NCBI GenBank assembly: GCA_050953885.1
Contig: JBMNNJ010000002.1
Coordinates: 190,140 to 247,643 of the forward strand
Source of the DNA: Patescibacteria group bacterium
GTDB taxonomy: Bacteria; Patescibacteriota; Microgenomatia; 0-14-0-10-38-17
Length of the DNA: 57,504 nucleotides
Reading direction: 5' to 3'
Position 1 is the stretch's first letter. Every line of letters starts with the position of its first letter. Below, piece after piece: positions 55-56,966 of this stretch. Made by a program: the position numbers and the translations under genes. The notes beneath the pieces are model-generated. The model saw only the letters and a list, made by a program, of their open reading frames with translations, was not told the origin of the DNA and searched no databases.

Positions 55-366
55 GTATTTGGTATTAAGTATTTGGTATTAGGTATAAAAAGGCAATACA
101 AATTTTCGCTTCTAGGGAATAAATAGCGCCATGCGTAATAGACAAGTACAAAGCGCAAAAACTAAATCAAAATTCAAAAACAATCAATAAACTCAAATGT
201 TAAATCGCAATCCGCCAGCTGGCGGATCAAAACTACAACTCAAAACTCAAATCTGAAAAACAACTTTAAGCTTTAAAAAGTTTTAACATTTGCCATGTAG
301 ATTTGCCATTTGCCATTTGAGTTTTGCGTTTTTTATACTTAATACTTAATACTAAATACTTAATAC
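55..366. repeat. Nested imperfect palindrome block (word-type repeats) upstream of tsaD
   Basis: Outer arms gtatttggtattaagtatttggtattaggtat (55-86) and atacttaatacttaatactaaatacttaatac (335-366) are inverted. Inner caaa/tttg word arms surround the central perfect palindrome tccgccagctggcgga (211-226). Confidence 0.85.
227..311. repeat. 85-bp dispersed repeat, copy 1 (identical to 12341-12425)
   Basis: tcaaaactacaactcaaaactcaaatctgaaaaacaactttaagctttaaaaagttttaacatttgccatgtagatttgccattt was read base by base in both places. A partial third copy lies at 8608-8631. Confidence 0.95.
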
Positions 367-1647: not shown

Positions 1648-3477
1648 ATGAAAAAACCTGCCAAAACCCTACCGTGGTTAGGGGTGGTGGCGATCAAAAA
1701 AGCGGTTTTAATTTTTGGCCGTCATCCCCAAGAAAAGAACCTCTTTTTGGTGCTTAAAAGCAAAAACGGCCTTGATTTTTCTCCTTTCAAAACTTGGGCG
1801 GAAATTATCGACCCAAAAGGCCAACCGGAGGAAATTGAAAAAACCAGTGATTTCAACCTTAGCAAAATTAATAACCGCTATTTTCTCACCTATCTTAAAG
1901 AAGAAAAAAAAGGAAAAATTTTAAACGGCGCTTTCTGGAGCGGTTTCTCCCACTGGCAAAAAGCCGGCTCCTGGCCCAACATTAGCAAACCGGCTTTCCT
2001 TGCCCCCAACTACCGCTGGGGGAAAAAATTGGTTCTTTTTTTTGGCGGCCGGGAGATAAAAATCGCCACCTCACCTGATCTTAAAAAATGGCAAGTAGGG
2101 AAAAGAATTTTCCCCCAAAAACCCCTACTAGCAGGCCAGGAAATAAAAGTGGGGAAGGTGGTTAAAACCAAGAAGGGCCTAGCGCTTTTCTACTGCCGAC
2201 AAGTTGAATCCTCCAATCAGTGCCGCCTTGACGCCCTGCTTTTAAACCCCGAAAAACCAACCCAAGTTATCAGGAAAGAAAAGCTTTGGGAAGGAGAATG
2301 GGGCAGGAAAGTTTCTTTTTTAGGAATGGCGGTTTTGGGAAGCCGCCTATTAACTTATTGGCAGGACGATGAGGGAGAAATTTTTGCCTTAAACCTTCCT
2401 TATCTGACGCCCTTGTTTGAAAGCGAAGAAGAAGATTTTACCGCCCCCTTGGTAACCCGTTACCGCGACAACCCGATTTTAGAACCGATTAACACCCATA
2501 AATGGGAATCAAAGGCAGTTTTTAACAGCGCTGTTTTTGCCGACCGCGAAAAAATTCATCTTGTCTACCGGGCGGTCGGCGACGATGATGTTTCCGTTTG
2601 GGGATATGCGGCCAGCAAAGATGGTTTTCAAATAGAAGAAAGACTTAAAAAACCGATTTACGCTCCCCGCGAGGGTTTTGAAGGCAGCATTCGCCGCCCG
2701 GCCTCTTTTTACCGCCCCGCTTTCTCCTGCGGCAGTGGCTATGGCGGTTGCGAGGATCCTCGCGCCACTCTAATCGACAACCGTCTTTATTTTACCTATA
2801 CCGCCTTTGACGGCGGTAATCCGCCTCGTGTGGCCTTGACCTCCATTAACCTTGATGATTTTCGCGCCCATCGCTGGCGCTGGCGCCAGCCGGTACTTCT
2901 TTCCCCACCGGGGCAAACCAACAAAAACTGGGTTCTCTTCCCCCAAAAAATCAAAGGAAAATACGCACTTTTACACAGCATTTCCCCAAAAATTTTAATT
3001 GACTATCTTGACAGCCTTAATTTTGATGGCCAAACTTTCATCAAAAGCAATTACGATGGTCAAGCTCCCGGCGCCTTATGGGAAAACCGGATTCGTGGCG
3101 TCGGCACCCCGCCCTTGCTTACCCCTTTAGGCTGGCTTATTTTTTATCATGCGATGGATAAGAGCGAACCCTATCTTTATAAGATCGGGGCGATGATTTT
3201 GGATAAAGAGGAGCCGACCCGCATCCTTTGGCGCGCCCACCAGCCGGTTTTGGCGCCCCGGCAAATTTATGAAACTACCGGCGCAAAACCCGGCATTGTT
3301 TATACCTGCGGCGCGGCCGCTTTCAAAAGTAAGCTCTTGCTTTATTACGGCGCTGCCGATAACATTCTAGCAGTGGCCAGCGCGCCTTTGGAAGAATTTT
3401 TAGGCAAACTGCGCTCCGGCGGCCAACCAACGCTTAAGCCCGCTAAAATGAAAGTAAATTACCAACTGACAGCGTAG
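1648..3477 (+). CDS. Two-domain glycosidase/phosphorylase, GH130 (DUF377 beta-propeller) family
   Basis: The C-terminal half has GH130 hallmarks: RDNPILEP...WESKAVFNSAVF, HLVYRAVG, WGYAASKDG, GCEDPR, YFTYTAFDG, YYGAADN. The N-terminal ~260 aa looks like a second, degenerate propeller. An RBS (aaggagg) lies upstream. Confidence 0.7.
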   Translation: MKKPAKTLPWLGVVAIKKAVLIFGRHPQEKNLFLVLKSKNGLDFSPFKTWAEIIDPKGQPEEIEKTSDFNLSKINNRYFLTYLKEEKKGKILNGAFWSGFSHWQKAGSWPNISKPAFLAPNYRWGKKLVLFFGGREIKIATSPDLKKWQVGKRIFPQKPLLAGQEIKVGKVVKTKKGLALFYCRQVESSNQCRLDALLLNPEKPTQVIRKEKLWEGEWGRKVSFLGMAVLGSRLLTYWQDDEGEIFALNLPYLTPLFESEEEDFTAPLVTRYRDNPILEPINTHKWESKAVFNSAVFADREKIHLVYRAVGDDDVSVWGYAASKDGFQIEERLKKPIYAPREGFEGSIRRPASFYRPAFSCGSGYGGCEDPRATLIDNRLYFTYTAFDGGNPPRVALTSINLDDFRAHRWRWRQPVLLSPPGQTNKNWVLFPQKIKGKYALLHSISPKILIDYLDSLNFDGQTFIKSNYDGQAPGALWENRIRGVGTPPLLTPLGWLIFYHAMDKSEPYLYKIGAMILDKEEPTRILWRAHQPVLAPRQIYETTGAKPGIVYTCGAAAFKSKLLLYYGAADNILAVASAPLEEFLGKLRSGGQPTLKPAKMKVNYQLTA

Positions 3478-3500
3478 ACAGAATTAAGTATAAAAATTAA

Positions 3501-3550
3501 TTCAAAAGGCAAAATTCAAAATGCAAAATTACAATTCAAAATTCAAAAGT
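3501..3550. repeat. Left arm of inverted 'caaaattcaaaagt' word repeat bracketing the four-helix-bundle gene
   Basis: ttcaaaaggcaaaattcaaaatgcaaaattacaattcaaaattcaaaagt is complementary to 3901-3940. The gene's ATG (3521) and first ~10 codons lie inside this arm. Confidence 0.8.
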
Positions 3551-3895
3551 GATTTAAAGAAAAGGTGCTTTAGGTTTAGTCTGACTATCATTGATTTTAT
3601 TGACACTCTTCCTAATAAAAAAGCGGCTTGGATTATTGCTGACCAACTCTTAAGAGCGGCAATGTCTATTGGCGCTAACCTTATTGAAGGCAGTGCGGCC
3701 AGTTCAAGGTTGGAATACAAAAAATACTATGAAATTGCTTTAAAAAGCGCTAATGAAACCAAGTATTGGCTGTGCCTATTAAGAGATTCAGGCTTGGGGG
3801 AAAAAGAAAGAACTCAAGCTCTCTTAGATGAGGCAACCCAGCTGGCTAATATGTTAGCAGCTGGAGTAATGAAGCTGAAAAGAAAAACTTTTTAA
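3521..3895 (+). CDS. Four-helix-bundle protein (23S rRNA intervening-sequence protein family, TIGR02436/PF05635-like)
   Basis: 124 aa with the typical layout: ...FSLTIIDFIDTLP...ADQLLRAAMSIGANLIEGSAA.S..E...YYEIALKSANETKYWLCLL. Confidence 0.8.
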   Translation: MQNYNSKFKSDLKKRCFRFSLTIIDFIDTLPNKKAAWIIADQLLRAAMSIGANLIEGSAASSRLEYKKYYEIALKSANETKYWLCLLRDSGLGEKERTQALLDEATQLANMLAAGVMKLKRKTF

Positions 3896-3900
3896 TTTTA

Positions 3901-3940
3901 ACTTGAACTTTTGACTTTTGAATTTTGAATTTTGACTTTT
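3901..3940. repeat. Right arm of inverted word repeat bracketing the four-helix-bundle gene
   Basis: acttgaacttttgacttttgaattttgaattttgactttt is the reverse complement (imperfect) of the 3501-3550 arm. Confidence 0.8.
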
Positions 3941-3946
3941 ACTACC

Positions 3947-5940: not shown

Positions 5941-6146
5941 TTTTTGGCGCGGGCAGACGATAAACAAATGCAAAGCGCAAAGAGCAAAAAGCAAAACCTA
6001 AATCAAAGTGCAAAAACATTTTTAATTTATGGTTTTGGTCTTTGAACTTGGTTTTGCTCTTTGATTTTTGATATTTGATTTATTTTTATATTATTCGTTC
6101 ATTCGTGTCCATTCGTTTCCAATTCGTGTGAATTCGTGTCTTTGAC
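5941..6146. repeat. Intergenic hairpin of caaag/ctttg words followed by 'attcgtg' word run
   Basis: caaagcgcaaagagcaaaaagcaaaacctaaatcaaagtgcaaaaac faces ggttttggtctttgaacttggttttgctctttgatttttg, followed by ttcgtgtccattcgtttccaattcgtgtgaattcgtgtc. Sub-words are shared with 46369-46412 (inverted). Confidence 0.8.
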
Positions 6147-6149
6147 AAT

Positions 6150-7850
6150 TTATTCTTCCCCAAACACCTCCGCCGTGTAGGTAAAAAGCTCCACTTCAGG
6201 ATGGCGCCAGCAATCAGCCGGCAAGCCGGCTTTTTCAACACAAAGATTAGTTAAAAATTCCTCCCGGCTCCAACCGGTTTCCTCGGCCACCTGAGGCAAA
6301 AAAGTGGCGCTCCTCTGGCCATATTTTAAATAAACGCCGTGTTTCCCCATTTCAATTTCCTCAACCGAATTAACTTTTCTCATCGGCGATAAAACAGAAA
6401 TTTCTATTTTTATTTCCTCAAGCTCTTCAGGGGAAAGAGGCAAAAAGCGGGGGTCATCAAATGCGGCCGCCAAAGCCATTTTTTTCACCTTTTCCCAAAG
6501 CGGTTCGTCAGCCGAAAAATCGCCAATACAGCCCCGCAGTTGGCCGTTTTTCTTCAGGGTCACAAAAACGCCCCGCTTTTGCGCTAAGCGAGGAGTAGGG
6601 GGCGGCTGATCGGGGACTTCTCCTTTTCCAAAATAGTTTTCAAGCGCTCCTCGGGCGCGGCTAAGAAGCATTTCCTTCTCTTCTTGAGAAAATTCCTCTT
6701 GACCATCAGCTGGTTGACTTTCCTCAACCGCTCCAGGGCGATTCTGTCCACCAGCGGGTAGATTAGAGTAACGGTTATAAACAGCGTCATTCTGAACTTG
6801 ATTCAGAATCTGTTTGCGATTTGAAATTTCCAAAGACTGATTCTGTCCGCCAGCTGGCGGATCGTCAGAATGACGAGAGCTGCCAGCGGAAATATTCAGC
6901 CAAAAACCAATCGCCGCATAGCCCACCGCCCGCTCTTTCTCGCCAGTAACCTCGCCGGAATTGGTTAACGAGAAAAGCTTTTGTTTGGTCATCCCCAAAG
7001 CCTGACCTACCTTAAGCCCCACCCGAATCGCTTCCTCCCCACAGGCAAAGGTGGCCACTTGAGGGTAATTTTGGCTTAATTCCTCAAGCGTTTTTGAAAA
7101 AACCTCTTCTTTGCCGGAAAGAATGGCCGCCACCGTCTGTTCATCAACCGCCCGCGCCAAGTCTGCCGGCGGATAATGAGAAAGATCGGAGGAAACCACC
7201 AAAAGAGTCTGCTCGTCAAAAACATTACTTATTTTTTGTGCCAACAAGCTTAAAACCGCTTCGTCCGCTTGGCCAAGCAAAATGGGGATAATTTTAAGAT
7301 CTTCCAAGCCGACCGTCTGCAGAAAGGGAAGAAGCACCTCCAAACAATGTTCGTTCTCGTGGGGTAAACTGTTAATGATAATTCCTCCCTCCTTATCTTG
7401 GAGTTTGCTAATTTTTTCCTTATCCAAAGCCAGCCTGCCTAAAGGCGTCTGCCAAAAATCGTTACCATCAAGAGCGGCGCCGGCAAAATAGGCCTGATGG
7501 GAAGGCCCCAAAAGAATAACCGTTTTAAAATTTCCCCCTTTAACTTGAGCAAAAGCCTGAGCCGCCACCGACCCGGAATAAGGATAACCGGCATGGGGAA
7601 CAATTAAAAAATTAGGCGCTTCCCCCACCTCTTCTAAAGGCAGGGCTTTTGAGAAAAACAAGGCTAATTGTTCTTCCAACACCTCTTTTTGGGCTGGATA
7701 AAACTGACCGGCCACGGCTGGTTCTCTTATTAAAGGCTTTTCCATTTTTTGTTTTTCTTCGCTCCCTCCTTTTACGGCTAAAATAACAACAACGAGCGTT
7801 AAAAGCCCGGCTAAAACCAAGCCGCCGGCAATTAATTTCCTTTTTCCCAC
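6150..7850 (-). CDS. Fusion protein: N-terminal membrane anchor + Memo-like (AmmeMemoRadiSam system protein B) + AMMECR1 (protein A) domains
   Basis: Memo part: AVAGQFYP, IVPHAGYPYSG, ILLGPSH, VVSSDLSHY. AMMECR1 part: RGVFVTLKKNGQLRGCIG...DPRF. The TM helix is LIAGGLVLAGLLTLVVVILAV. The start is uncertain: GTG 7850 is preferred, and the ORF extends to 7919 in AT-rich repeat words. Confidence 0.8.
   Translation of the reverse strand: MGKRKLIAGGLVLAGLLTLVVVILAVKGGSEEKQKMEKPLIREPAVAGQFYPAQKEVLEEQLALFFSKALPLEEVGEAPNFLIVPHAGYPYSGSVAAQAFAQVKGGNFKTVILLGPSHQAYFAGAALDGNDFWQTPLGRLALDKEKISKLQDKEGGIIINSLPHENEHCLEVLLPFLQTVGLEDLKIIPILLGQADEAVLSLLAQKISNVFDEQTLLVVSSDLSHYPPADLARAVDEQTVAAILSGKEEVFSKTLEELSQNYPQVATFACGEEAIRVGLKVGQALGMTKQKLFSLTNSGEVTGEKERAVGYAAIGFWLNISAGSSRHSDDPPAGGQNQSLEISNRKQILNQVQNDAVYNRYSNLPAGGQNRPGAVEESQPADGQEEFSQEEKEMLLSRARGALENYFGKGEVPDQPPPTPRLAQKRGVFVTLKKNGQLRGCIGDFSADEPLWEKVKKMALAAAFDDPRFLPLSPEELEEIKIEISVLSPMRKVNSVEEIEMGKHGVYLKYGQRSATFLPQVAEETGWSREEFLTNLCVEKAGLPADCWRHPEVELFTYTAEVFGEE
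6739..6880. repeat. Three intergenic-type palindromic repeat units lying in frame inside the Memo-AMMECR1 ORF
   Basis: gattctgtccgccagctggcggatc (6839-6863) is identical to 8585-8609. agcgtcattctgaacttgattcagaatc (6783-6810) matches 8865-8892 and 21549-21576. A variant gattctgtccaccagcgggtagatt lies at 6740-6764. Confidence 0.9.
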
Positions 7851-7900
7851 CCTTTCTATTGTATAATATTTAAGATAGTATTTGGTATCTTGTATTAAGT

Positions 7901-8479
7901 ATGAAAAAAAATAAATCAAGATGCACTGTCTTTATTGACGGCAGTAATTTCTACTTCAAGCTGAAAGAATTAGGCTTTCGCAATCTTTTGGAATTTGATT
8001 TCTCCGGCTTTGTAAAAATGTTGGCCGGTAAGAAAGGCAGCCTTGTTAAGGCTACTTATTATGTGGGGAAAATCCGCACCGACGGCACAAAGAAAACACA
8101 ACAACTGTTTAGAAGTCAAAGAAAGCTCCTTGCCCACCTTAAAAAACACAAAATTACCTACTCTCTGGGCTATTTAATGAAATCAGACGGAAAATATCAT
8201 GAAAAGGGAGTTGATGTTAATATTGCCGTCGATATGCTTGTGGCGACATATGAAAACTTAAGCGACCGGCTTATTTTAGTCTCCTCCGATACCGATCTCT
8301 TGCCGGCGATTGTTAAAGCCAAAGAAAAGGGCAAATTTGTTGAATATGTTGGTTTTTCCCATAAACCCAGCGTTGCTCTTGTGGCAACTTGTTTGGCATC
8401 ACGTCTCTTAACAAAAGAGGATTTAGAAAAGTTTAGCGTAAAAAAGAGAGAAGTAAGAAAGCAAAAAAAAGGCCTGTGA
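7901..8479 (+). CDS. NYN-domain (LabA/DUF88-like PIN-fold) putative RNase
   Basis: TVFIDGSNFYF..., GVDVNIAVDML, LVSSDTDLLPAI: the acidic motif pattern of NYN/LabA proteins. Confidence 0.75.
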   Translation: MKKNKSRCTVFIDGSNFYFKLKELGFRNLLEFDFSGFVKMLAGKKGSLVKATYYVGKIRTDGTKKTQQLFRSQRKLLAHLKKHKITYSLGYLMKSDGKYHEKGVDVNIAVDMLVATYENLSDRLILVSSDTDLLPAIVKAKEKGKFVEYVGFSHKPSVALVATCLASRLLTKEDLEKFSVKKREVRKQKKGL

Positions 8480-8579: not shown

Positions 8580-8945
8580 AAATAGATTCTGTCCGCCAGC
8601 TGGCGGATCAAATCTGAAAAACAACTTTAAGATTTAAGAGGATTGAATAGTATTAGGTATTAAGTATGAAAGAACTCAAAACGCAAAGTAACAACTTAAT
8701 TTTAAATAAACTAATTTTAAATTTTAATTCAATTTCTAAATTTCTAAATGACTAAAGGAGAAAAATTCATTCAATCATTTATTTATTTAGATTTCATTTA
8801 AAATTTGTTATTTAAAATTTAAAATTAATTGATTCTGACTTTCGTCAGAATGACGGCCACGATTAGCGTCATTCTGAACTTGATTCAGGATCAGGCAGAT
8901 TCTGACTTTCGTCAGAATGACAGAAAAGTGCCAGAATGACAGCAG
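8580..8945. repeat. Repeat-only intergenic block (several palindromic families in tandem)
   Basis: Contains gattctgtccgccagctggcggatc, a partial copy of the 85-bp repeat, gaatagtattaggtattaagtatgaaagaactcaaaacgcaaag (also at 12297), 2x gattctgactttcgtcagaatgac, and gcgtcattctgaacttgattcaggatc. Confidence 0.9.
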
Positions 8946-8970: not shown

Positions 8971-11046
8971 ATGGATAAACGCTATCAACCCGAAAAAGTG
9001 GAGGAAAAAATTTATCAGTTTTGGGAAGAAAGGGGTTTCTTTACCCCTAAAATTGAAAAAGGGAAAAAGCCGTTTGTGATCACCTTGCCTCCTCCTAATG
9101 TTACCGGCAGTCTTCATGCCGGCCACGCGATGTATGTGGTTGAGGATATTATGGCCCGTTATCAGCGGATGAAGGGCGAGCCTACTCTTTGGTTGCCGGG
9201 TTTTGACCATGCCGCCATTGCCGTAGAATACCTTGTTAATCAGGAGCTTAAAAAAGAAGGCAAAACCAAAGAAGAAGTTGGCCGAGAAGAGTTTTTACGC
9301 CGCGCAGAGAAATTCGCCAACCGCTCCCGTGATTATATCCGCCAACAACTCAAGCGTTTGGGTTTTTCCCTTGACTGGTCACGCGAGGCTTATACGATGG
9401 ACGAAAAACGCTCGCTGGCGGTAAAAACCGCTTTTAAAAAGCTCCACCAAAAAGGGCTTATTTACAAAGGCGACTATCTGGTTAACTGGTGCCCAGGTTG
9501 CCAAACGGTCATTTCCGACTTGGAAAACATTTACGAGGAAGAAGAAGGCGTTCTTTATTACCTTTCCTATGGCCCAATCACCATCGCCACCACCCGACCG
9601 GAAACTATTTTTGCCGATGTGGCCGTGGCCGTTCATCCCCAAGACCGGCGCTACCAAAAACTGGTCGGCCAAAAAGTGCCCCTGCCATTAACCGGCCGGC
9701 TGATCCCGGTTATCGCCGATGAAGCGGTGGACCCAAAATTTGGCAGCGGCGCTCTAAAAATTACCCCCGCCCATGACCAAACCGACTTCGAGATCGGTCA
9801 ACGCCACCATCTGCCCACTCTTAAGGTGGTTAACGAAAAAGGTCGTCTTACTGATTTAGCCGGCTCTTTTGCTGGGCTAAAAGTAAATGAGGGGAGGCAA
9901 AAAGTGGTTGAGGTTTTGCGCCAAAAGGGATTTTTGAAAAAAGAAGAGCCTCTGATTCACCAAGTTGGCCACTGTCAGCGTTGCGGCACCACCACCGAAA
10001 CCACCATCTCCAAACAATGGTTTTTAAAAACCAAGCCTTTGGCTCAAAAAGCGATCAGCGCCGTTAAAAGCGGCCGGGTAAAAATTATCCCCAAACATTT
10101 TGAAAAAAATTATTTCCACTGGCTTGAAAATATTCACGACTGGTGCATTTCCCGTCAGCTTTGGTGGGGACACCCGATACCCCTTAAGGGAGAAACGGAT
10201 GTTTTGGATACTTGGTTTTCCTCCTCTCTTTGGCCCATTTCTGTTTTCGGCTGGCCAAAAAAAACCGCCGATCTGGCCTATTTTTACCCCACCACCGTTC
10301 GTGAAACCGGCTATGATATCCTTTTTTTCTGGGTCGCCCGGGAGATGATGATGTGCCAAGAGCTCACCGGCAAGGCTCCTTTTAAAATTATTTACCTTCA
10401 TGGCCTGGTCCGTGATGAAAAGGGGCGAAAATTTTCCAAAACCAAAAAAATTGGCTTTGACCCGCTGGAAATGGTTAAACAATATGGCGCCGACGCCTTG
10501 CGGATGGCTCTAGTTTACGGCACCAGCGCCGGCCGCGATCTTTTAATTTCTCCCGATAAGGTTATTAGCATGCGCAATTTTACCAACAAAATTTGGAACG
10601 CGGCGCGATTTATTTTAATGAATCGGGAAATTCGCAATTCGATCCACCAGCCGGCGGATGAGATCCAAGGTAAATCACAAATTTTAAATTTAAAAAACCA
10701 AAACAAAGATGACCAGCGGATATTAGCCTCATTGGATAAAACTATCAAGAGTGTAACCAAAGATATGGAAAACTACCGCTTTGGTCAGGCGGCGGAAAAG
10801 CTTTACGCTTTTTTCTGGCATGAGTTTTGCGATATTTATCTTGAACAAGCTAAAAAAAGGCTCTATAATGAAAGTGACCCAAAAGGGCAGGAAGAAGCGC
10901 TAGTGGTTTTAACTTTTGTTTTAAAAGAAAGCCTGAAGCTGCTTCATCCTTTTATGCCTTATGTGACGGAGGAAATTTGGACCAATCAATTAAAAGAGGA
11001 CGTGCCTTTGGTGGTTTCGCCCTGGCCCAAGAAAGAAATCCGGTAA
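8971..11046 (+). CDS. valS: Valine--tRNA ligase (short form, no C-terminal coiled-coil)
   Basis: PPPNVTGSLHAGHAM (HIGH), TTRPETIFADVAVAVHP and ITPAHD (editing domain), WCISRQLWWGH, DTWFSS, KFSKTK (KMSKS). Only 691 aa. Confidence 0.9.
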   Translation: MDKRYQPEKVEEKIYQFWEERGFFTPKIEKGKKPFVITLPPPNVTGSLHAGHAMYVVEDIMARYQRMKGEPTLWLPGFDHAAIAVEYLVNQELKKEGKTKEEVGREEFLRRAEKFANRSRDYIRQQLKRLGFSLDWSREAYTMDEKRSLAVKTAFKKLHQKGLIYKGDYLVNWCPGCQTVISDLENIYEEEEGVLYYLSYGPITIATTRPETIFADVAVAVHPQDRRYQKLVGQKVPLPLTGRLIPVIADEAVDPKFGSGALKITPAHDQTDFEIGQRHHLPTLKVVNEKGRLTDLAGSFAGLKVNEGRQKVVEVLRQKGFLKKEEPLIHQVGHCQRCGTTTETTISKQWFLKTKPLAQKAISAVKSGRVKIIPKHFEKNYFHWLENIHDWCISRQLWWGHPIPLKGETDVLDTWFSSSLWPISVFGWPKKTADLAYFYPTTVRETGYDILFFWVAREMMMCQELTGKAPFKIIYLHGLVRDEKGRKFSKTKKIGFDPLEMVKQYGADALRMALVYGTSAGRDLLISPDKVISMRNFTNKIWNAARFILMNREIRNSIHQPADEIQGKSQILNLKNQNKDDQRILASLDKTIKSVTKDMENYRFGQAAEKLYAFFWHEFCDIYLEQAKKRLYNESDPKGQEEALVVLTFVLKESLKLLHPFMPYVTEEIWTNQLKEDVPLVVSPWPKKEIR

Positions 11047-12296: not shown

Positions 12297-12486
12297 AATA
12301 GTATTAAGTATGAAAGAACTCAAATCGCAAAACTCAAAACTCAAAACTACAACTCAAAACTCAAATCTGAAAAACAACTTTAAGCTTTAAAAAGTTTTAA
12401 CATTTGCCATGTAGATTTGCCATTTAAGTTTTAAGTTTTGAGATTATCTTTCGTTTCTCGTTCGCGTTAATTCGCGTATTTCAACA
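12297..12486. repeat. Intergenic repeat block including copy 2 of the 85-bp repeat (12341-12425)
   Basis: Contains gaatagtattaagtatgaaagaactcaaatcgcaaa (also at 8647), the 85-bp identical repeat, then ttcgtttctcgttcgcgttaattcgcgtat words. Confidence 0.9.
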
Positions 12487-13801: not shown

Positions 13802-15433
13802 ATGGCCGAAGAAAAAAATCTTTCCCCCCTTCTGGCGCGCCTAATTCAAGACTATTGGCAAGCGGTCGAAAAAAGCCGGCAAAAAAAACAAGAGGCCACA
13901 GTAAACGTTGATGAAATCGCTTCAAAGCTGGCTGTTTTTTACGAAAAGGTCCGCAAAGTGGTCGACTGGAAAGAAGAAAACCTGATTCGCCGCTCCGCTA
14001 TTGAGCGTTATCTTCGCCGCCAGCTGGTTGGCGAAATTTCCCAGTTTTCTCTTAAAAAAAATATCAACAGCCAAGAGGTAGCGGAAACAATCGTCGCCGA
14101 TTTGGTCCGGGGAGGCTATCTGAAAAATGGTCAGGTGCCGCAAAGTAAGGTAGGCGAGGTAAAAAATATCTTAGAGCGCTATCTTTTTCTCCTTAATCTT
14201 CTTTCCCGCCAAATCCCAGAAAAGGAAGTTAAAGAAAGAGTTAACCAGTCGGTTTGGCTTTTCTCCCAGGCGGCTTGCGAAATTGAAAAAACCCTCGATC
14301 CTGGCTTTCGTCAGGATCTCTTGATTAACTTTATGTTTGACTCTTTAAAAACGCGCCTTGCCTTGGACCCGCAATTAAAAATTGAACCTCAAGAGGCCGA
14401 GGTACAGCTTTATATTGCCGTCTGCCAAAGTCTTTTTAGCCTTGATGAGGCAGAAATTACCTCGCGACTACTTCCCCTTTATTACCCGCAATGGCAAACC
14501 CCCGACGAGAGCCTTAATATCCGCCAAATAAGGGAAGAAATTGCCCAAAAATTTAACCACCCCTTAGCCAGCCAATGGCAAAAAATTTGCCGTCAGGAAA
14601 AGGCGATTTTTTTAATTTTAAGCGATATTTTTAAGGAAAAAGAAAAAGAAGCGAAAAACTTTCAGGAATTCTGGGAGCAATTCGCGGTGCCGGATAATTT
14701 TCAAGCCGCCGTGGAAGAAGCGTATCAAAAGCGGTTTTCCACCCTTAAGTCGCGGCTTTTTAGAACCGCCATTTATTCCACCCTTTCCATTCTCATTGCC
14801 AGCCTTTTTTCGCTCTTAATTTTGGAGTTTCCGCTGGCAAAATTAATCTATGGCCAATTTTTACCATTAGCGATGATCATTGATATTCTTGTTCCCACTC
14901 TCTTGATGTTTCTTTTAGTAGCTTTGATCAGGCCGCCAAAAGAGGAAAATTATCAGCGATTAGAACAAAAAATTTTCCAATTAGCTTACGAAGAAGGAGG
15001 AGAAAGCTATTTTTTAAAACCAAGCAGGCCGCAAAGCCTTTTAAGCAAAAGCCTTTTTGCCTTTCTTTATCTTCTCGTTGCCACCTTGGGAATAGGCCTG
15101 ATTGTCGGCATTTTTTATTTTGCCAACGTGCCACCCACCTCAATTATTTTAGACACCATTAATGTGGCGATGATTATTTTTGCCGCCCTTTCTATCCGCC
15201 AAAGCGCGAAGGAAATTGATGTTGACGAGAAAGAATCTTTTTTCGAGTTTTTTCTTGACACCCTTTTTGTGCCCGTGGGCCGCTTAGGCCAGTGGTTTTC
15301 CCAAAAGTGGCGGGAGTATAACGTGGCCAGTGTTTTTTTAAGTGTTTTAGTGGATCTGCCTTTTTCTTCGTTAGTTACCTTCGTGGAAGACTGGCGCGCT
15401 TTCCTACGGGAAAAGCAGGCGGGAATTCATTAA
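13802..15433 (+). CDS. Hypothetical integral membrane protein (soluble N-terminal ~320 aa + ~5 TM C-terminal part)
   Basis: Long uninterrupted ORF with several clear hydrophobic helices after aa ~320. No family recognised. Confidence 0.5.
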   Translation: MAEEKNLSPLLARLIQDYWQAVEKSRQKKQEATVNVDEIASKLAVFYEKVRKVVDWKEENLIRRSAIERYLRRQLVGEISQFSLKKNINSQEVAETIVADLVRGGYLKNGQVPQSKVGEVKNILERYLFLLNLLSRQIPEKEVKERVNQSVWLFSQAACEIEKTLDPGFRQDLLINFMFDSLKTRLALDPQLKIEPQEAEVQLYIAVCQSLFSLDEAEITSRLLPLYYPQWQTPDESLNIRQIREEIAQKFNHPLASQWQKICRQEKAIFLILSDIFKEKEKEAKNFQEFWEQFAVPDNFQAAVEEAYQKRFSTLKSRLFRTAIYSTLSILIASLFSLLILEFPLAKLIYGQFLPLAMIIDILVPTLLMFLLVALIRPPKEENYQRLEQKIFQLAYEEGGESYFLKPSRPQSLLSKSLFAFLYLLVATLGIGLIVGIFYFANVPPTSIILDTINVAMIIFAALSIRQSAKEIDVDEKESFFEFFLDTLFVPVGRLGQWFSQKWREYNVASVFLSVLVDLPFSSLVTFVEDWRAFLREKQAGIH

Positions 15434-15546
15434 AATAAGGGAAAATACGGGAGAATACGGGAAAGATAAGGAAAAAATAAGAGAAAAATAAGTTTGAATA
15501 AACTATATCGTTAACCGTAACCCTTAAAAACTCACTAAACTTTTCT

Positions 15547-16383
15547 ATGGATCTTAAAAAACTGCTTAAAAGCCTTGACTTTGAAAACACCGATTGGGAA
15601 AAATTTGCTTGGCAAGAATTGGACCTTGATTGGGAAAATTTTCTTTCCTGGGATCTGTCTTTTCTAACCTCTGACGAGATTGGCAAATTAAACAGCCTCC
15701 ACGGTGCTTGGCTGATTTACGGGAAACCCTCCCGTAGCTCTCCCGTAGCTTCCCGTAATCTCCCGTTTGCTATCCCAAGCTTGGAAAAAATTGACTACCA
15801 GTCCCAAAACCCCCGCGGCTATCGCGCCTTGGCCCTTTGGCAAACCGCCAATCTCCTTTATGATTTTCTCAGACTTTTTACCCCCACCCTCCCCCCTTAT
15901 GAACATCGCCTTAAAGCCCAAGCCGACGACGCCGGCCGCAGTATGGTCGCTAACATTGAGGAAGGTTACGCCCGCCCCACTACCTTAGAATACTTGGAGT
16001 TCTTGGGTTTTGCCTACGCTTCCTGGGCAGAAGCAGATGGCGACATAGAACGTCTCCATAGTTTAGGCTATTTAAAATCTGTTGCCGGCTCCGGCTTGGC
16101 ATCCTTAGACATTCCCACACCGGCTCCAGACCGGCCCTATCCTCCCCTGGCTTCCCGTCAAAATCCGGGAAAATACGGGAGCTTAAGGGAAAAACTACGG
16201 GAATATACGGGAAAAAATATCAGGCCGGAGGAATTAACTTATGAGGCTTTCAAAGAACTTTCCAATAAAACCGGCTATCTTTTTAAAAAGACGGCGGAGG
16301 GATTGAGAGGAAAAATCATTAGGGACGAGAAAAGAGGGCTGGAGGAGAAAATGGAAATTATCTGGAGGAAATATTGGGGATAA
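15547..16383 (+). CDS. Four-helix-bundle (IVS-protein-like) domain protein with repeat-derived flanks
   Basis: The core YRALALWQTANLLYDFL...LKAQADDAGRSMVANIEEGYARPTTLEYLEFLGFAYASWAEADGDIERL matches the 4HB/IVS-protein pattern. cccgta/tacggg word runs lie in frame at 15728-15768 and 16150-16215. Confidence 0.55.
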   Translation: MDLKKLLKSLDFENTDWEKFAWQELDLDWENFLSWDLSFLTSDEIGKLNSLHGAWLIYGKPSRSSPVASRNLPFAIPSLEKIDYQSQNPRGYRALALWQTANLLYDFLRLFTPTLPPYEHRLKAQADDAGRSMVANIEEGYARPTTLEYLEFLGFAYASWAEADGDIERLHSLGYLKSVAGSGLASLDIPTPAPDRPYPPLASRQNPGKYGSLREKLREYTGKNIRPEELTYEAFKELSNKTGYLFKKTAEGLRGKIIRDEKRGLEEKMEIIWRKYWG

Positions 16384-19841: not shown

Positions 19842-19896
19842 AATTTATGAATATAAAGATACACGAAACATGATATAGGAAACAGGAAATAAAAAC

Positions 19897-20040
19897 AAAA
19901 TTAAAATTCAAAAGTCAAAAGTTAAAATTACAAGTTAAAATTCAAAAGTAGAACAAAAAACTTTTAACTTTTGACTTGCACTTTTGACTTTTGCATTTTG
20001 AATTTTGAATTATTTTTCTTGTTTCTCGTTCGTGTCTTCA
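19897..20040. repeat. Gene-less long hairpin of 'tcaaaagt/acttttga' words plus 'cgttcgtg' words
   Basis: aaaattaaaattcaaaagtcaaaagttaaaattacaagttaaaattcaaaagtag faces cttttaacttttgacttgcacttttgacttttgcattttgaattttgaatt. The 27 nt cttttaacttttgacttgcacttttga is identical to 21630-21656. Confidence 0.9.
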
Positions 20041-21344: not shown

Positions 21345-21685
21345 AAAAATAAAAAGTCAAAAGTCAAAATGCAAAAGTCAAAATGAAAGAGAAAAAAATT
21401 AAAAATCAGTAACCCGTAATAGGTAATAAAAAAGTGCAAAGAGCCCCGCCACAGCGGGCCGCCCACCCCAGACGGGATTCAAAATCAGTTAGATCCTGAC
21501 TTTCGTCAGAGCCTGTCCTGAATTTAATTCAGGAATGACAGTTGCGATTAGCGTCATTCTGAACTTGATTCAGAATCAGTTAGATCCTGTCCACCAGCCG
21601 GCGGATAAAATTTAAAAGTAAAACGAAAACTTTTAACTTTTGACTTGCACTTTTGAATTTTGAATTTTAAATTTTAAATTTTTAA
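21345..21685. repeat. Nested palindromic repeat block
   Basis: Outer arms aaagtcaaaagtcaaaatgcaaaagtcaaaatg / cttttaacttttgacttgcacttttgaattttgaatttt enclose gatcctgactttcgtcagagc, cctgaatttaattcagg, gcgtcattctgaacttgattcagaatc and tccaccagccggcgga. Confidence 0.9.
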
Positions 21686-21746: not shown

Positions 21747-23009
21747 CTACTCTAAAATCCCGTTTTTCTCTGTGTTAATAAACCCTAAGACCACCGCGAA
21801 CAAAAGAAAGTTTTGCGGCAAGGTGAGCCAGTAATGATCGAAAAGCCCCAAAAATAATATTAACAGGTAGGGGCGTATTGCATACGCCCTATAATGTAGG
21901 GGCACATTGCCGGCGCGCCAAAATATCTTCACCGCCATGGTTATAAAAACCAACAAACCAATGAAGCCCGTTTCGGAGGCGATTAATAAATAAATGTTGT
22001 GGACCGGCTGGAGCAAATTGACATCTTGGCGTAGAAAAGGGAGCGTTTCCGCCTGGGCGGGGATAAAATTGCCCAAGCCCACGCCCAAAAGAGGCCGTTT
22101 TTTAATTAAAACTAAGGCGTTTTGGGCCAAAACTAATCGCTCGTTCAATGATTTTTGTTCTACCAAACCTGCCTTAACAGAGAAGAGTATCGCTATTATA
22201 TATAATAGGAGCATCGCCCCTACCCCTATTTTAGGCAAAAGACCGGATTTTTGCCGCCATTTTTGCCATAAAAAAATTATTAGCGCCAACCCCGCCCCTA
22301 AATAAGCGGCAAAAGAAAAAGTTAAAAAGAGGGTCAGGCTAAGAAAGAAAAAAACCAAATTAAAAAAAATCTTATTTTTAAAACTTTCCCTTGCCCCCCA
22401 CAAAAGAAGAAGCGAAACCAGCAAAAAGCCGGCCAGGGAATTGGGATGAGAAAAAGTGGCGTAAGGCCGCAAAAGCAAATGATCACCTATCTGCGCCAGG
22501 GCGATTCCGGGAGTGGCCAAATTAAAAGAGCGCTCGCCTAACCACCAAAAAATTCCCCCCAAGGAGCCACCCTTAAACACCTGCCCCCAAGCCAAAAAAG
22601 AGCTGACTAAATTTCCCAAAAGCAAGGCTTGAGGCCAAAGAGAAAACTGAAAGCGTTTTAGAAAAAAAACTAAAAAGGAAAATTCGCCCAGTCTTAGAAA
22701 GCGATAAAAAGAAACTAAGGGACGAGAAGAAAAAATTATATTTAAAACCAAGAAGGCCAAAACCAACCCTAAGTTTAAAATTTTTGTTTTATTTTTCCAC
22801 TCTTTCTTGAGCCATTTTTTCAAAAGAGGCCAAGAAAAAAGAACCAGCGCCAAAATTAAAAGATCGGTTAAATAAATTGTCGGTGAGAGGAAATCAAGCC
22901 TTAACCCCCAAACATAAGCTTCCTCGGGCCAAAAATGATATCCTAATTGGGTAGGCAAAAAAAGAAAGAAGCTCCAAAGCAAAAACTCCCTTATCTTTTT
23001 AACCTCCAT
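21747..23009 (-). CDS. O-antigen ligase (Wzy_C) family membrane protein
   Basis: Polytopic, with the ATFSHPNSLAGFL motif characteristic of O-antigen ligase-like proteins. A hairpin repeat lies in frame at 21867-21919. Confidence 0.65.
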   Translation of the reverse strand: MEVKKIREFLLWSFFLFLPTQLGYHFWPEEAYVWGLRLDFLSPTIYLTDLLILALVLFSWPLLKKWLKKEWKNKTKILNLGLVLAFLVLNIIFSSRPLVSFYRFLRLGEFSFLVFFLKRFQFSLWPQALLLGNLVSSFLAWGQVFKGGSLGGIFWWLGERSFNLATPGIALAQIGDHLLLRPYATFSHPNSLAGFLLVSLLLLWGARESFKNKIFFNLVFFFLSLTLFLTFSFAAYLGAGLALIIFLWQKWRQKSGLLPKIGVGAMLLLYIIAILFSVKAGLVEQKSLNERLVLAQNALVLIKKRPLLGVGLGNFIPAQAETLPFLRQDVNLLQPVHNIYLLIASETGFIGLLVFITMAVKIFWRAGNVPLHYRAYAIRPYLLILFLGLFDHYWLTLPQNFLLFAVVLGFINTEKNGILE

Positions 23010-24997: not shown

Positions 24998-25082
24998 TAC
25001 GGGCGTATTGCAATACGCCCCTACATTTTGTTCGCTCATTCGTGTTAATTCGTTTTCTATTCGCGTCAATTCGCGTCTTTTA
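24998..25082. repeat. Left arm of ~80-bp imperfect inverted repeat bracketing the rhomboid gene
   Basis: gggcgtattgcaatacgcccctacattttgttcgctcattcgtgttaattcgttttctattcgcgtcaattcgcgtc matches the reverse complement of 25765-25830. The same composite recurs at 49220-49282. Confidence 0.8.
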
Positions 25083-25083
25083 T

Positions 25084-25764: not shown

Positions 25765-25830
25765 AAAACACGGATGAACACGAATGGGAAACGAATAAGC
25801 ACGAATTGTAGGGGAGGGTTTTCCCGCCCA
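25765..25830. repeat. Right arm of inverted repeat bracketing the rhomboid gene
   Basis: cacggatgaacacgaatgggaaacgaataagcacgaattgtaggggagggttttcccgccc. Confidence 0.8.
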
Positions 25831-25888: not shown

Positions 25889-26932
25889 ATGAAAGAGGCT
25901 CTTCTTTGGGAAGAAAAACCCCACCAAGCGGTTCGCTGTCTTGCCTGTCACCATTTTTGCCAAATTGCCCCGGGCCAAACCGGTGTTTGCGGGGTGCGGC
26001 AAAACCAAAATGGTCGGCTTTATTCTTTGGTTTATGGCCAGGCGGCCGCCATAGGTATTGATCCGGTGGAAAAAAAGCCTCTTTTCCATTTCCTGCCGGG
26101 CAGCTTGGCTTTCTCCTTCGGCACCCTCGGCTGTAATTTTTCCTGTCTTAACTGCCAAAACTGGGAAATTTCCCAACTTGCTAACCAAAAGAGGAGGGTG
26201 GAAAATTATCCCCGCCTTTTTTGGGGAGAAAAGCTAAGGCCGCCGCAAATTGTCAACCTTGCCCGCCAAAATCAGTGCCTCTCTATCGCCTACACCTATA
26301 ACGAACCGACCGTCTTTTTGGAATACGCCTTGGCAACGATGAAGCTGGCCCGCCGGGCCGGCTTAAAAAACATCTGGGTTTCCAATGGCTTTATGTCCTC
26401 AAAAACATTAGATTTAATCCTGCCTTATTTGGACGCGGCTAATATTGATATTAAATCAATCAAGGAACAGTTTTATCAAAAAGTCTGCGGCGCCAAGCTG
26501 GCACCGGTTTTGGAAAACTGCCAAAGGCTGGTTAAAGAAGAAGTTTGGCTGGAGGTAACCACCCTAGTTATTCCCACCCTCAACGATAAGATTGCTGTCT
26601 TAAATAATATTGCCGGCTTTATTAAGGAAAAATTAGGCGACGCTGTTCCTTGGCATTTAAGCGCCTTCTCGCCCGCGATTTCCTGGAAACTAAAAGACCT
26701 ACCCGCCACCCCGCCGACGACAATTAAAAAAGCCCGTCAGGAAGCTTTAAAAAAGGGCCTAAAATATGTTTACGCCGGCAACTTAGGACCATCTTCCGGC
26801 GACGATACCCTTTGCCCCGCCTGCGACCAGTTGGTGGTTAAACGCCGCGGCTACGAAATTACCCGCTTTGACCAAAACGGCCACTGCCCCAAATGCGGCC
26901 AAAAAATTGAAGGATGGTGGAGTTTCAAATGA
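25889..26932 (+). CDS. amrS: AmmeMemoRadiSam system radical SAM enzyme (AmrS)
   Basis: VRCLACHHFCQIAPGQTGVCGVRQN.NG.LYSLVYG, the radical-SAM cluster GCNFSCLNCQNWEISQ, and a C-terminal Cys4 knuckle CPACD...CPKCG. Confidence 0.8.
   Translation: MKEALLWEEKPHQAVRCLACHHFCQIAPGQTGVCGVRQNQNGRLYSLVYGQAAAIGIDPVEKKPLFHFLPGSLAFSFGTLGCNFSCLNCQNWEISQLANQKRRVENYPRLFWGEKLRPPQIVNLARQNQCLSIAYTYNEPTVFLEYALATMKLARRAGLKNIWVSNGFMSSKTLDLILPYLDAANIDIKSIKEQFYQKVCGAKLAPVLENCQRLVKEEVWLEVTTLVIPTLNDKIAVLNNIAGFIKEKLGDAVPWHLSAFSPAISWKLKDLPATPPTTIKKARQEALKKGLKYVYAGNLGPSSGDDTLCPACDQLVVKRRGYEITRFDQNGHCPKCGQKIEGWWSFK
26752..26922 (+). repeat. Direct repeat copy 1 (attL-like): functional 3' end of amrS
   Basis: Aligns with 33017-33187. 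26831-26907 is identical to 33096-33172 (77 bp). The flanks differ by scattered substitutions. Confidence 0.9.
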
Positions 26933-32937: not shown

Positions 32938-33016
32938 AATTTGAAAGACCAAGAAGGGAACCGCTATAAGCGTCAAATACAACAACGGTTGTTCTCTTTG
33001 TTTAGGTAATTACGGC

Positions 33017-33187
33017 AAGGGGCCTCAAACATGTTTACGCCGGTAACTTGGGACCATTTTCCGGCGACGATACCCTTTGCCCCACCTGCGGTCAATTGGT
33101 GGTTAAACGCCGCGGCTACGAAATTACCCGCTTTGACCAAAACGGCCACTGCCCCAAATGCGGCCAAAAAATCGCCGGTTGGTGGGG
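33017..33187 (+). repeat. Direct repeat copy 2 (attR-like)
   Basis: See 26752-26922. The 77-bp identical core is 33096-33172. Confidence 0.9.
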
Positions 33188-33200
33188 AAAAACGCCTTAG
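33021..33200 (+). pseudogene. Displaced 3'-terminal fragment of amrS (last ~59 codons, frame intact, no start)
   Basis: In-frame translation: GLKHVYAGNLGPFSGDDTLCPTCGQLVVKRRGYEITRFDQNGHCPKCGQKIAGWWGKTP*. The live gene end reads GLKYVYAGNLGPSSGDDTLCPACDQLVVKRRGYEITRFDQNGHCPKCGQKIEGWWSFK*. Confidence 0.85.
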
Positions 33201-33273
33201 AGGTGAGTTTCCCGCCACGAGAGGACTATTTACGCCTCGGCTAAAAGCCAAAAGCAGCGTTTGCAATTAGTTC

Positions 33274-37646: not shown

Positions 37647-38480
37647 CTAATAGAAAGCGCCGGAGCAGTAGCTGGTGGTTGGCAGCCATTCATTTTTTGC
37701 TACCTCTCCGGAATTAGTATGATAAAAAACTTCAAACCCATTTTTACCTAATTTTTCGGCCATCATTAGAATCGTTACTAAAGCAGGGGGAGAATCAAGA
37801 TAGCGATCGTCTAGAGCCAAAATTTCCCGATAATTAAAACTTTCTATCAGCCTTAAGGTTAAATCGTCTTTTGATCGCGCTTCTTCGCTCCTTAAATGGT
37901 GAGAAAAATCAATTGAAGCAAGAATAATCACGCCTTCTTTTTGGTAAGTCAACAATTTTTGGGCCAAAACGCCAATTTCCTCAAAATCAAGACGGCCGCT
38001 TAAAACAAGGGGAACCACTGTTGTTTCGGGAAGGTAAAGCTTCAAAAAGGGCAAAAGCGCGCCCACGGCATGCTCGTTTTTCAAAACCTCCTCGTCAACT
38101 TCCACCAAATTTTCTGCCAACAAGCCTTCGATAATTAATTCGTCGGGAAATATTTTCCCAAAAGGCGTCTGCCAACCGGAAAGACTGGTAAGCACCTTGA
38201 AGTTTCCTTTTTCATAATGATTAGGGCCAAGAATAATAATTGTCTTCGGGTTTTGGAAAGAAAGCCTTTGGAAAAAATCGGTGATAATAAAACCGGCGAA
38301 GATATCATGGGGAACGATCCCTAATGCAATTTGATAATTTTCCTGGCGGGTTTTTGCTCCCATTATCCCTTTATCAAAAAGCTCTTTATCAAAAAAAACA
38401 GTTTGATAAGAGTCAACCAATAAGAAGGTAAAAAAAATAAGCAGGCTAACGACTATCCCCCTAAAAATAACCTTTTTCAT
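37647..38480 (-). CDS. Memo-like protein (AmmeMemoRadiSam system protein B family) with N-terminal membrane anchor
   Basis: GIVPHDIFAG, ILGPNHY, HAVGALLPFL and ASIDFSHH match the Memo metal-site pattern. TM helix GIVVSLLIFFTFLLV. The start overlaps the alpha-2-macroglobulin stop by 4 nt. Confidence 0.75.
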   Translation of the reverse strand: MKKVIFRGIVVSLLIFFTFLLVDSYQTVFFDKELFDKGIMGAKTRQENYQIALGIVPHDIFAGFIITDFFQRLSFQNPKTIIILGPNHYEKGNFKVLTSLSGWQTPFGKIFPDELIIEGLLAENLVEVDEEVLKNEHAVGALLPFLKLYLPETTVVPLVLSGRLDFEEIGVLAQKLLTYQKEGVIILASIDFSHHLRSEEARSKDDLTLRLIESFNYREILALDDRYLDSPPALVTILMMAEKLGKNGFEVFYHTNSGEVAKNEWLPTTSYCSGAFY

Positions 38481-46359: not shown

Positions 46360-46610
46360 ACAAATTCAGAGCGCAAAAATCAAAATTCAAAACCAAGCTC
46401 AAAGACCAAAACTACAAATTAAAACTCAAAATGCAAATGGCAAATACAATTCTGTAGGGGCGGACCCATGTGTCCGCCCGTCAAAGGGTCCGTCCCTACC
46501 TTATTTAAAACCATTAATCGGGTCGACACATGGGTCGACCCCTACAAATTCCCTTGCGTTTTGCGATTTAACATTTGAGTTTATTTTTTGTGTCAATTCG
46601 CGTCTTCTAA
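46360..46610. repeat. Nested repeat block (caaa-word arms enclosing two gtagggg...cccctac hairpins)
   Basis: gtaggggcggacccatgtgtccgccc... and cgggtcgacacatgggtcgacccctac. The arm cttgcgttttgcgatttaacatttgagtttat is the reverse complement of 187-210 (ataaactcaaatgttaaatcgcaa). Confidence 0.85.
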
Positions 46611-49162: not shown

Positions 49163-49285
49163 CATGGTAGGGGTGATTTATGAATCACCCGTTGGGGGCT
49201 TATTTCCGCCCACATGGTCGGGCGCCCACAAGGGGCGCTCCTACATTTTGTTCACTCATTCGTATTAATTCGTGTTCCTAACAGT
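49163..49285. repeat. Hairpin repeat cluster (gtaggggtgatttatgaatcaccc..., cgcccacaaggggcgctcctac) + 'attcgt' words
   Basis: The tail cctacattttgttcactcattcgtattaattcgtg parallels 25020-25055. Confidence 0.85.
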
Positions 49286-56920: not shown

Positions 56921-56966
56921 CCCTGAATTAGATTCAGGGCAGGCCCTGAACTTCGTTCAGAATCTG
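56921..56966. repeat. Two adjacent hairpin repeats of the 'ctgaa...ttcag' family
   Basis: ccctgaattagattcaggg and ccctgaacttcgttcagaatctg. The second is related to 6783, 8865 and 21549; the first resembles the cctgaatttaattcagg hairpin at 21516-21532. Confidence 0.8.

Follow-up and report, generated by a model that had tools for sequence, protein, structure and literature searches.

REP-type hairpins inserted in frame, probably stepwise, in the linker of a Memo-AMMECR1 fusion protein of Patescibacteria

Introduction

CGTC-tagged REPs, as described by Di Nocera, De Gregorio & Rocco in 2013, carry a terminal CGTC, TGTC or CCTC tag, a stem of 8-9 bp that begins with A-T pairs, a loop that measures 4 nt in family 1 and 5 nt in families 2-4, and a short, unpaired tail with the consensus CCA (PMC3733652). 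These repeats are mostly extragenic and usually occur as head-to-head dimers, with occasional in-frame intragenic copies; intragenic clusters that encode 43-82 aa have already been documented, and the supplement of the same study contains an intragenic CGTC-2 copy read as RHSELVSGS (PMC3733652). The RPE-6 and RPE-4 elements of R. conorii are members of this superfamily (PMC3733652). In-frame MITEs such as ERIC, the Coxiella QMITE and Nezha, which are small and non-autonomous, likewise give rise to translational fusions with the ORFs of their hosts (PMC10969869). A search of the accessible literature library for REPs in Patescibacteria/CPR, and for papers on Memo-AMMECR1 fusions, returned nothing relevant.

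Here we analyse a Memo-AMMECR1 fusion gene in a 57.5-kb stretch of DNA from an uncultivated patescibacterium (hereafter the window, meaning the whole stretch). A fused "protein B/protein A" is already named in the public annotation of the AmmeMemoRadiSam system, and the protein encoded in the window matches both of the corresponding models, TIGR04336 and TIGR04335; it differs from the known fused relatives in a linker that is about 50 aa longer. We focus mainly on the origin of these additional residues.

Results

The fusion gene and its relatives

The first-pass annotation of the window had described a 589-codon ORF in which a Memo-like and an AMMECR1 domain are joined, and Pfam and NCBIfam agree with this description (Table 1), the protein scoring 241 bits with TIGR04336 (AmmeMemoSam_B) and 193 bits with TIGR04335 (AmmeMemoSam_A; cut-off 99). 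Because near-identical database proteins begin 23 codons further in, the true start is probably the GTG at 7850, which would give a protein of 566 aa, as in P0001. The gene for the radical SAM partner lies 18 kb from the fusion gene, so that protein B, protein A and the radical SAM enzyme are all encoded within the window and the AmmeMemoRadiSam system is complete. The closest relatives of the protein carry the database names Candidatus Woesebacteria or Shapirobacteria (CPR/Patescibacteria, Microgenomates group).

Table 1. Positions of the fusion gene, the parts of its linker insert and related loci in the window
Feature	Position	Strand	Details
Memo-AMMECR1 (AmrB/AmrA) fusion gene, longest ORF	6150..7919	-	589 codons, from TTG
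AMMECR1 / AmmeMemoRadiSam protein A domain	6162..6659	-	aa 421-586; PF01871, E 4e-59; TIGR04335
Memo / AmmeMemoRadiSam protein B domain	6909..7724	-	aa 66-337; PF01875, E 2e-59; TIGR04336
Lineage-specific in-frame insert	6741..6893	-	~51 codons (aa ~343-393), ~153 nt; missing in close orthologs
Unit C(A)', degenerate second copy of C(A)	6740..6773	+	encodes NLPAGGQN; family D6, 80%
Unit B, CGTC-ATTCTGAA-CTTGA-TTCAGAAT-C	6785..6810	+	CGTC-2 architecture; encodes ILNQVQND
Spacer between units B and C(A)	6811..6838	+	28 nt
Unit C(A), CGTC-type hairpin GATTCTG...GTCAGAATGACG	6839..6875	+	palindrome TCCGCCAGCTGGCGGA nested in loop; encodes SRHSDDPPAGGQN
Intergenic A unit	8585..8609	+	25/25 identical to linker copy
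Intergenic C-B-C array	8831..8921	+	unit order and 11-nt first-C-to-B spacing as in linker insert
Intergenic array of C-like, hairpin, B and A units	21491..21607	+	A/T-rich inverted arms at both sides
AmmeMemoRadiSam radical SAM partner (AmrS)	25889..26932	+	TIGR04337, 347 bits vs cut-off 220

The first-pass annotation also took the two domains to be normally separate proteins, which is overstated because the fusion is widespread. Both Pfam domains were present in all of the 120 best protein matches, and GTDB species genomes contain at least 579 loci that encode a relative, in phyla that include the Bacteroidota, Acidobacteriota and Patescibacteria. The latter were retrieved by a scan with the fusion alignment; among the matches listed, the relatives were all distant (at most 40% identity), with no close syntenic loci, and their linkers were short and had no second copy in the locus. 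By sequence comparison, the Memo-AMMECR1 fusion is thus old and common, and was not made by repeats.

Anatomy of the linker insert

The linker had been described as built of three repeat units, and three were indeed found (Table 1). Read on the coding strand, the insert starts with a C unit that carries the A unit, a palindrome, in its loop (CGTCATTCTGAC-GATCCGCCAGCTGGCGGA-CAGAATC, encoding SRHSDDPPAGGQN); this is followed by the 28-nt spacer and an inverted B unit (ILNQVQND), and then by an 11-nt spacer and the degenerate second C(A) unit (NLPAGGQN). The C unit itself reads CGTC-ATTCTGAC-GAAA-GTCAGAAT-C. Within the spacer between B and C(A), a 12-mer (6813-6824) is identical to an intergenic family at 12320-12331. 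The insert was ruled out as an intein or intron, being only 153 nt long, composed of known hairpin units and devoid of catalytic features. If translated, it would be expected to yield the tryptic peptides HSDDPPAGGQNQSLEISNR and QILNQVQNDAVYNR.

The same units occur between the genes of the window. The previously noted 25-nt identity to 8585-8609 holds at 25/25 nt for linker positions 6839-6863, of which a further copy with 2 mismatches lies at 1530-1554. Two 28-nt matches had also been reported; the one to 8865-8892 was recovered at 27/28 nt from linker positions 6783-6810, and the other proved to be exact (28/28 nt) and to lie at 21550-21577 instead of 21549-21576. We found no match to any of the linker patterns in 100 dinucleotide-preserving shuffles, and chance similarity between the linker and the intergenic units was rejected on this basis. 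Overall, A, B and C units were located at six intergenic loci of the window (204-228, 1530-1554, 8585-8609, 8831-8940, 21491-21607 and 56922-56966), so the earlier statement that such repeats fill the intergenic regions is correct as to their presence but somewhat generous as to their extent. A composite element, GAATGAC-11 nt-B (family D10), is common to the linker (6766-6810) and to intergenic positions 8848-8892 and 21533-21577, and the intergenic C-B-C array is found only 2 kb from the linker insert.

In their architecture, units B and C closely resemble CGTC-tagged REPs. The B copies at 6785, 8866 and 21551 all start with CGTC; the C copies end in ...GACG or ...GACA on the plus strand, and those of the linker and of the related locus L001 start with CGTC. 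Stems are 8 bp long and start with AT (C, ATTCTGAC/GTCAGAAT; B, ATTCTGAA/TTCAGAAT), and the loops are GAAA in C (4 nt) and CTTGA in B (5 nt). Head-to-head C-B pairs with an 11-nt spacer occur both at 8831-8892 and in the linker, and about 9 B/C-type units were counted within 57 kb (in this one window). Downstream of the stems come C and variable bases, the CCA consensus not being evident in the few copies available. Judged from sequence, units B and C therefore fit the CGTC-tagged REPs by tag, stem and loop, and probably by dimer pairing, with the nested-palindrome C(A) units departing from the published loop definition. GTAG-tagged hairpins, such as GTAGGGGCGTATTGCATACGCCC, are also present in the window.

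Three states of one linker site

Comparison with orthologs revealed three states at a single linker site, namely 0, +14 and +51 codons, each a multiple of three. In nearly all protein matches, 50-70 aa separate the end of Memo from the AMMECR1 core, as compared to 113 aa in the cluster to which the window's protein belongs; the linker itself measures 83 aa in the window, 46 aa in L001 and 32 aa in L002. A short, repeat-free linker was found in the fused close orthologs P0002, P0003, P0005, P0006 and P0007 and in the partial protein P0123; a contig for P0007 was looked for and not found. The first five proteins read "...GFWLNA-PKTANGNKKDD..." where the window carries 51 more residues, and the linker flanks on either side of the insert are homologous to theirs. 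These insert-free orthologs are 94-97% identical to the window's protein in both domains (P0002, 94% in Memo and 97% in AMMECR1).

In the sister lineage P0004/L001, the linker has 14 extra residues at the same codon and between shared flanks, of which the left one is the same; in the DNA these residues correspond to one intact C hairpin, and the further 111 nt of the window sit inside the loop of the hairpin that corresponds to this C unit. We also considered a likeness between the L001 linker and an intergenic spacer ("GCGATTAG"), which was dropped as an 8-mer on the wrong side of the tag. Since orthologs with 94-97% identity have no insert and a single unit is present in the sister lineage, the insert appears to be a recent, stepwise and in-frame invasion. 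By its domains the window's protein groups with the insert-free P0002, but by its linker flank it groups with P0004. Linker type is therefore discordant with the domain phylogeny, meaning that recombination or secondary loss was involved and that the order of the steps is uncertain.

Reading frame, selection and structure

The same 83-aa linker was found in at least 10 full-length proteins of independent JGI, ENA and NCBI assemblies (the cluster around P0001), which supports the single open frame against a hidden stop or frameshift. Frame-keeping point variants (PPAGG, PSAGG or PLAGG; RKQ or RKK) are the only differences within this cluster, and in L083, an independent ENA contig, the linker DNA is identical to that of the window. 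The PSAGG and PLAGG variants disrupt the stem of the palindrome with no compensating change. These uncompensated S and L variants speak against the hairpin being under selection within the coding copy, where it appears not to be maintained.

In comparison to the insert-free L002, dN/dS was 0.25 for Memo and 0.05 for AMMECR1, at a dS of 0.1-0.2, which places both halves under purifying selection and makes the insert a young one. The AlphaFold2 model has a pLDDT below 50 for aa 344-407, as compared to 70-90 in the domain cores, which is consistent with disorder.

At the RNA level, the insert may have an effect. The linker RNA folds slightly better than its shuffles (z = -1.9, with 7/200 shuffles folding as well or better), as compared to z = -4.5 for the intergenic array. 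A terminator scan retrieved no terminator-like site in the linker, and a scan of the whole window at Rfam gathering thresholds retrieved no family.

Repeats in other linkers and other genes

Repeat-derived sequences were also seen in the Memo-AMMECR1 linkers of other CPR lineages. The linker of L207, whose protein is 46% identical, contains a canonical GTAG REP, GTAG-GGGCGACC-CTTGC-GGTCGCCC, which is read as VGATLAVAR and is repeated exactly over 27 nt in an intergenic region close by. In L085 the linker contains an A-type palindrome, identical over 17/17 nt to the copies in the window. The linkers of L084 and L086 show similarity to the A-rich intergenic module found in the window at 12317-12365 and 227-251, with E values of 1e-5 to 3e-4; shuffled query sets gave 0.5 matches at E<0.05 per set, and low complexity may inflate this similarity. 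Two more linkers (L208 and L209) look repeat-like as peptides, had no second copy in their own loci and were left unclassified. As judged from these sequences, the Memo-AMMECR1 linker has been hit independently and repeatedly in other CPR lineages.

Two further genes of the window carry in-frame repeat pieces. An O-antigen-ligase gene contains an exact 23-nt copy of the GTAG-type hairpin at 1435-1457, which replaces an equal-length segment found in orthologs with 91-92% identity. In the variable loop of ValRS, a stretch of about 50 nt is homologous to intergenic positions 21589-21640 (alignment score 43, as compared to a shuffle maximum of 25), and the "PADE" core of this loop is restricted to the closest relatives.

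Unit B in metagenomes

Scanning metagenomes with the unit B pattern GTCATTCTGAN{6,7}TCAGAATC gave at least 135 matches. Among the matches listed, the loops were highly restricted (ACTTGTT, at least 37; ACTTGAT, at least 24; ATTTATT, at least 19). Most of the 135 listed matches were extragenic, the median longest open frame covering them being 48 aa, whereas random positions gave 272 aa. Of the 135, about 16 fell within long ORFs, read as ILNQVQND/ILKQVQND or as RHSELVSES, and for eight of those ORFs, among the matches listed, Pfam confirmed that the protein is genuine: a tyrosine recombinase, HsdM, a DegT aminotransferase, an S9 peptidase, a GT1 glycosyltransferase, TsaD, DapF and a UDP-glucose dehydrogenase. 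Unit B has three stop-free frames, of which both hydrophilic ones occurred among the matches listed and the third (VILNLIQN) did not; with these small numbers, a bias to hydrophilic frames is only suggestive.

Discussion

We propose, with a probability of roughly 0.8, that REP-type hairpins from the intergenic pool entered an existing disordered linker stepwise in a young Microgenomates (Woesebacteria/Shapirobacteria-like) lineage. One CGTC-type hairpin (unit C) would have inserted first, adding 14 codons, a state that would have survived in P0004/L001; the element would then have gained 37 more codons to become a C(A)-B-C(A)' array in which either C unit carries the GC-rich palindrome in its loop. 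An insertion would survive only if its length was a multiple of three and it had no stop in the frame of the gene, and the units would be read in hydrophilic frames (RHSD, PPAGGQN and ILNQVQND). The protein would tolerate the insert because of these hydrophilic frames and of the flexible-linker site, and it is most likely carried along neutrally instead of serving as a functional module. We infer both the order of the insertion steps and their mechanism; the REPs may have been mobilised, or an intergenic array may have taken part in ectopic recombination or template switching.

Of the two origins that the first-pass annotation had left side by side, the invasion of an existing linker with its frame intact is the one borne out by the repeat-free fused orthologs and by the one-unit sister lineage, fusions both with and without repeats being found as soon as orthologs are compared. 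The other origin, in which a repeat-filled spacer between adjacent amrB and amrA genes turned coding and thereby created the fusion, would account for an insert laid out like an intergenic array, and for the several CPR orthologs whose linkers resemble intergenic modules. It is nevertheless very improbable, since the closest relatives and many phyla have the fusion with short, ordinary linkers, insert-free orthologs have homologous linker flanks to the left and right of the insertion site, and the step from +14 to +51 codons occurs among genes that were already fused. Even less credible is an assembly or frameshift artefact that hides two genes separated by an ordinary repeat-containing spacer. 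Although repeats can cause misassembly, the long linker recurs in at least ten assemblies from three sources with point variants that keep the frame, the L083 DNA is identical, and the insert-free relatives are fused as well.

An insert with a function of its own also seems unlikely to us. Its hairpin mRNA might slow ribosomes for co-translational folding, processing or attenuation might yield a Memo-only product, or the added residues might serve as a useful linker or peptide; the unchanged presence of the insert in many assemblies, the slightly better folding of the linker RNA and the repeated hits on this linker in other lineages would all agree with such a role. Against it stand the very close orthologs that have no insert, the stem-breaking variants that are uncompensated, the absence of a terminator-like site in the linker and of an Rfam match, and the low-confidence structure prediction, and the unrelated repeats in the linkers of other lineages fit tolerance better than one specific function. 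Within the stepwise invasion that we favour, the array may have been copied as a block out of an intergenic one, through ectopic recombination, gene conversion or template switching at hairpins, instead of being built by transposition of single REPs; this is a sub-mechanism of the invasion and not a rival to it. The shared GAATGAC-11 nt-B composite, the equal C-B-C order and the mosaic distribution of linker alleles point in this direction, but the single unit at the same site in L001 suggests at least one single-unit event, and no donor array identical to the insert is present within the window. Block copying is therefore possible, with the balance tilted somewhat against it.

The linker insert reveals no new mechanism or function. 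What is new is the CPR/Microgenomates host for in-frame REP/RPE colonisation of proteins, the repeated hits on one linker in other CPR lineages, and the in-frame repeat pieces in ValRS and O-antigen ligase of the same window. The intermediates at one site (no insert, one unit and a nested three-unit array) are unusually clean, and can be of use for understanding how disordered linkers grow and for annotating CPR proteins with odd insertions. They also carry a warning that genuine proteins contain peptides derived from repeats, ILNQVQND and RHSELVSES among them. More tentatively, and at somewhat short of even odds, CPR/Microgenomates genomes might be pervasively colonised, in a Rickettsia-like manner, by CGTC REPs, GTAG REPs, GC-rich palindromes and A-rich heptamer modules, which would enter linkers and variable loops repeatedly and in frame, even in essential proteins. 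In that case, invasion by repeats would act as a general source of the lineage-specific insertions that typify CPR proteins, with certain sites, the Memo-AMMECR1 linker among them, serving as recurrent sinks.

Coding REP/MITE-like elements had been regarded as unusual in the first-pass annotation, which is overstated, since in-frame REP and RPE insertions, including the intragenic clusters, have been published (PMC3733652). The RHSELVSGS peptide of the published CGTC-2 copy is close to the RHSELVSES found here in metagenome proteins. CGTC REPs have been published from five phyla that do not include the Patescibacteria/CPR, the host in our case, and, unlike the published ones, the C units here hold a second palindrome within their loops. 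With REP/BIME and REPIN-RAYT systems (GTAG REPs) the units share the form of short, probably high-copy hairpins in arrays; classical REPs are extragenic by definition. As compared to in-frame MITEs, the units are only 24-37 nt long, and terminal inverted repeats or a target-site duplication are not definable. The closest likeness in behaviour is to the RPEs, palindromic repeats that lie in frame in unrelated proteins, are tolerated in exposed or variable regions and form lineage-specific peptide inserts; the fusion linker, the ValRS loop and the O-antigen ligase likewise represent in-frame insertions into ORFs of unrelated proteins. An RPE is one element of ~100-150 bp, whereas here several short units form a composite array within an interdomain linker, and the host belongs to the CPR and not to Rickettsia, so that the likeness is one of behaviour only and we do not assign the insert as an RPE. 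The phenomenon itself is of the known in-frame REP/RPE type, as in Rickettsia, here in a new bacterial group.

Repeat-like segments in other genes of the window

Two further genes carry pieces resembling intergenic repeats (see the table). In the gene for an O-antigen-ligase family protein, a 23-nt stretch exactly copies the intergenic GTAG-type hairpin GGGCGTATGCAATACGCCCCTAC at 1435-1457, of which a near copy lies at 25001-25025. This stretch is translated as ..NVPLHYRAYAIRPY.. and has a membrane helix on either side. At this site, orthologs that share 91-92% identity with the protein have a same-length but unrelated segment, and other relatives show variants, one of them 8 aa longer.

The piece in the variable loop of ValRS is homologous over ~50 nt to an intergenic module containing the GC-rich palindrome A, with 17/17 matches in the core. 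The 'SIHQPADEIQ' form of the loop is limited to relatives 95-97% identical; across Microgenomates, A-rich heptamer-type sequence seems to encode the loop (TNYKLQITNKSQ..KIQNKD). Tandem words of the AAAATACGGG type, found in the intergenic region 15434-15546, recur in the C-terminal part of ORF 15547..16383, which may be another repeat-derived coding segment.

Repeat-associated features of the window
Feature	Position	Gene or family	Remarks
GTAG-type hairpin copy	21867-21889	O-antigen-ligase family, ORF 21747..23009, minus strand	exact 23-nt match
In-frame repeat-like piece, variable loop	10642-10691	ValRS, 8971..11046, plus strand	homology to intergenic 21589-21640
AAAATACGGG-type tandem words	16150-16216 and 15422-15498		75%
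124-aa four-helix-bundle protein	3521-3895	TIGR02436	between two GH130-like phosphorylase paralogs
A/T-rich inverted repeats	141-333; 3476-3550/3884-3941; 5975-6100; 12308-12447; 19889-20014; 21318-21405/21626-21683; 46354-46433/46560-46582		
Word-repeat class ATTCGTGT	6100-6145, 25040-25083, 25770-25810		
Canonical GTAG-tagged REP hairpins	1435-1457, 25001-25025, 46455-46548, 49170-49245		e.g. GTAG-GGGCGGAC-CCATGT-GTCCGCCC

Start of the fusion gene

In the region 7850-7919, the TTG start of the 589-codon Memo-AMMECR1 fusion ORF overlaps a divergent NYN-domain gene (7901..8479), and database orthologs of the protein begin at the position equivalent to GTG at 7850. In its mature form the fusion protein starts with a membrane helix at the N-terminal end (KRKLIAGGLVLAGLLTLVVVILAV).

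Intergenic repeats and duplications

Most intergenic regions of the window contain long imperfect A/T-rich inverted repeats built of ~7-nt periodic words, with CAAAACT or TCAAAAT in one arm and TTTGCCA or TTTTGA in the opposite arm; these often enclose the GC-rich hairpins. Immediately past the 3' end of the fusion gene, one such A/T-rich hairpin separates convergent stop codons, and a 105-nt element is present in three copies (227-331, 12341-12445 [93%] and 19908-20012). Further word-repeat classes are GTATTAAGTAT and TATCTTAA, the latter sitting upstream of ribosome-binding sites.

The TIGR02436 gene is flanked by an A-rich (3476-3550) and a T-rich (3884-3941) repeat arm, and together with them resembles a cassette that was inserted. 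The gene for AmrS, the radical SAM partner, has its 3' end (26752-26920) duplicated at 33017-33185 within the intergenic region 32938-33273 (169 nt, 92%), the duplicate probably representing a gene fragment. An inverted duplication of 206 nt (88%) links 38008-38213, in gene 37647..38480, with 57250-57455 near the window end.

REP hairpins and their metagenome copies

GTAG-tagged REP hairpins and CGTC-type units (hairpins B and C) occur together in the window. Among the matches listed from a scan of metagenome contigs (loci L087-L206), the 25-mer GTCATTCTGAACTTG(T/A)TTCAGAATC was found in very diverse metagenomes, from the ocean and many other samples; its copies were usually extragenic, often with a second inverted hairpin nearby, and ~12% of those listed lay in frame within genuine proteins. 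The S9 peptidase of one locus (L096) contained two exact and two degenerate units.
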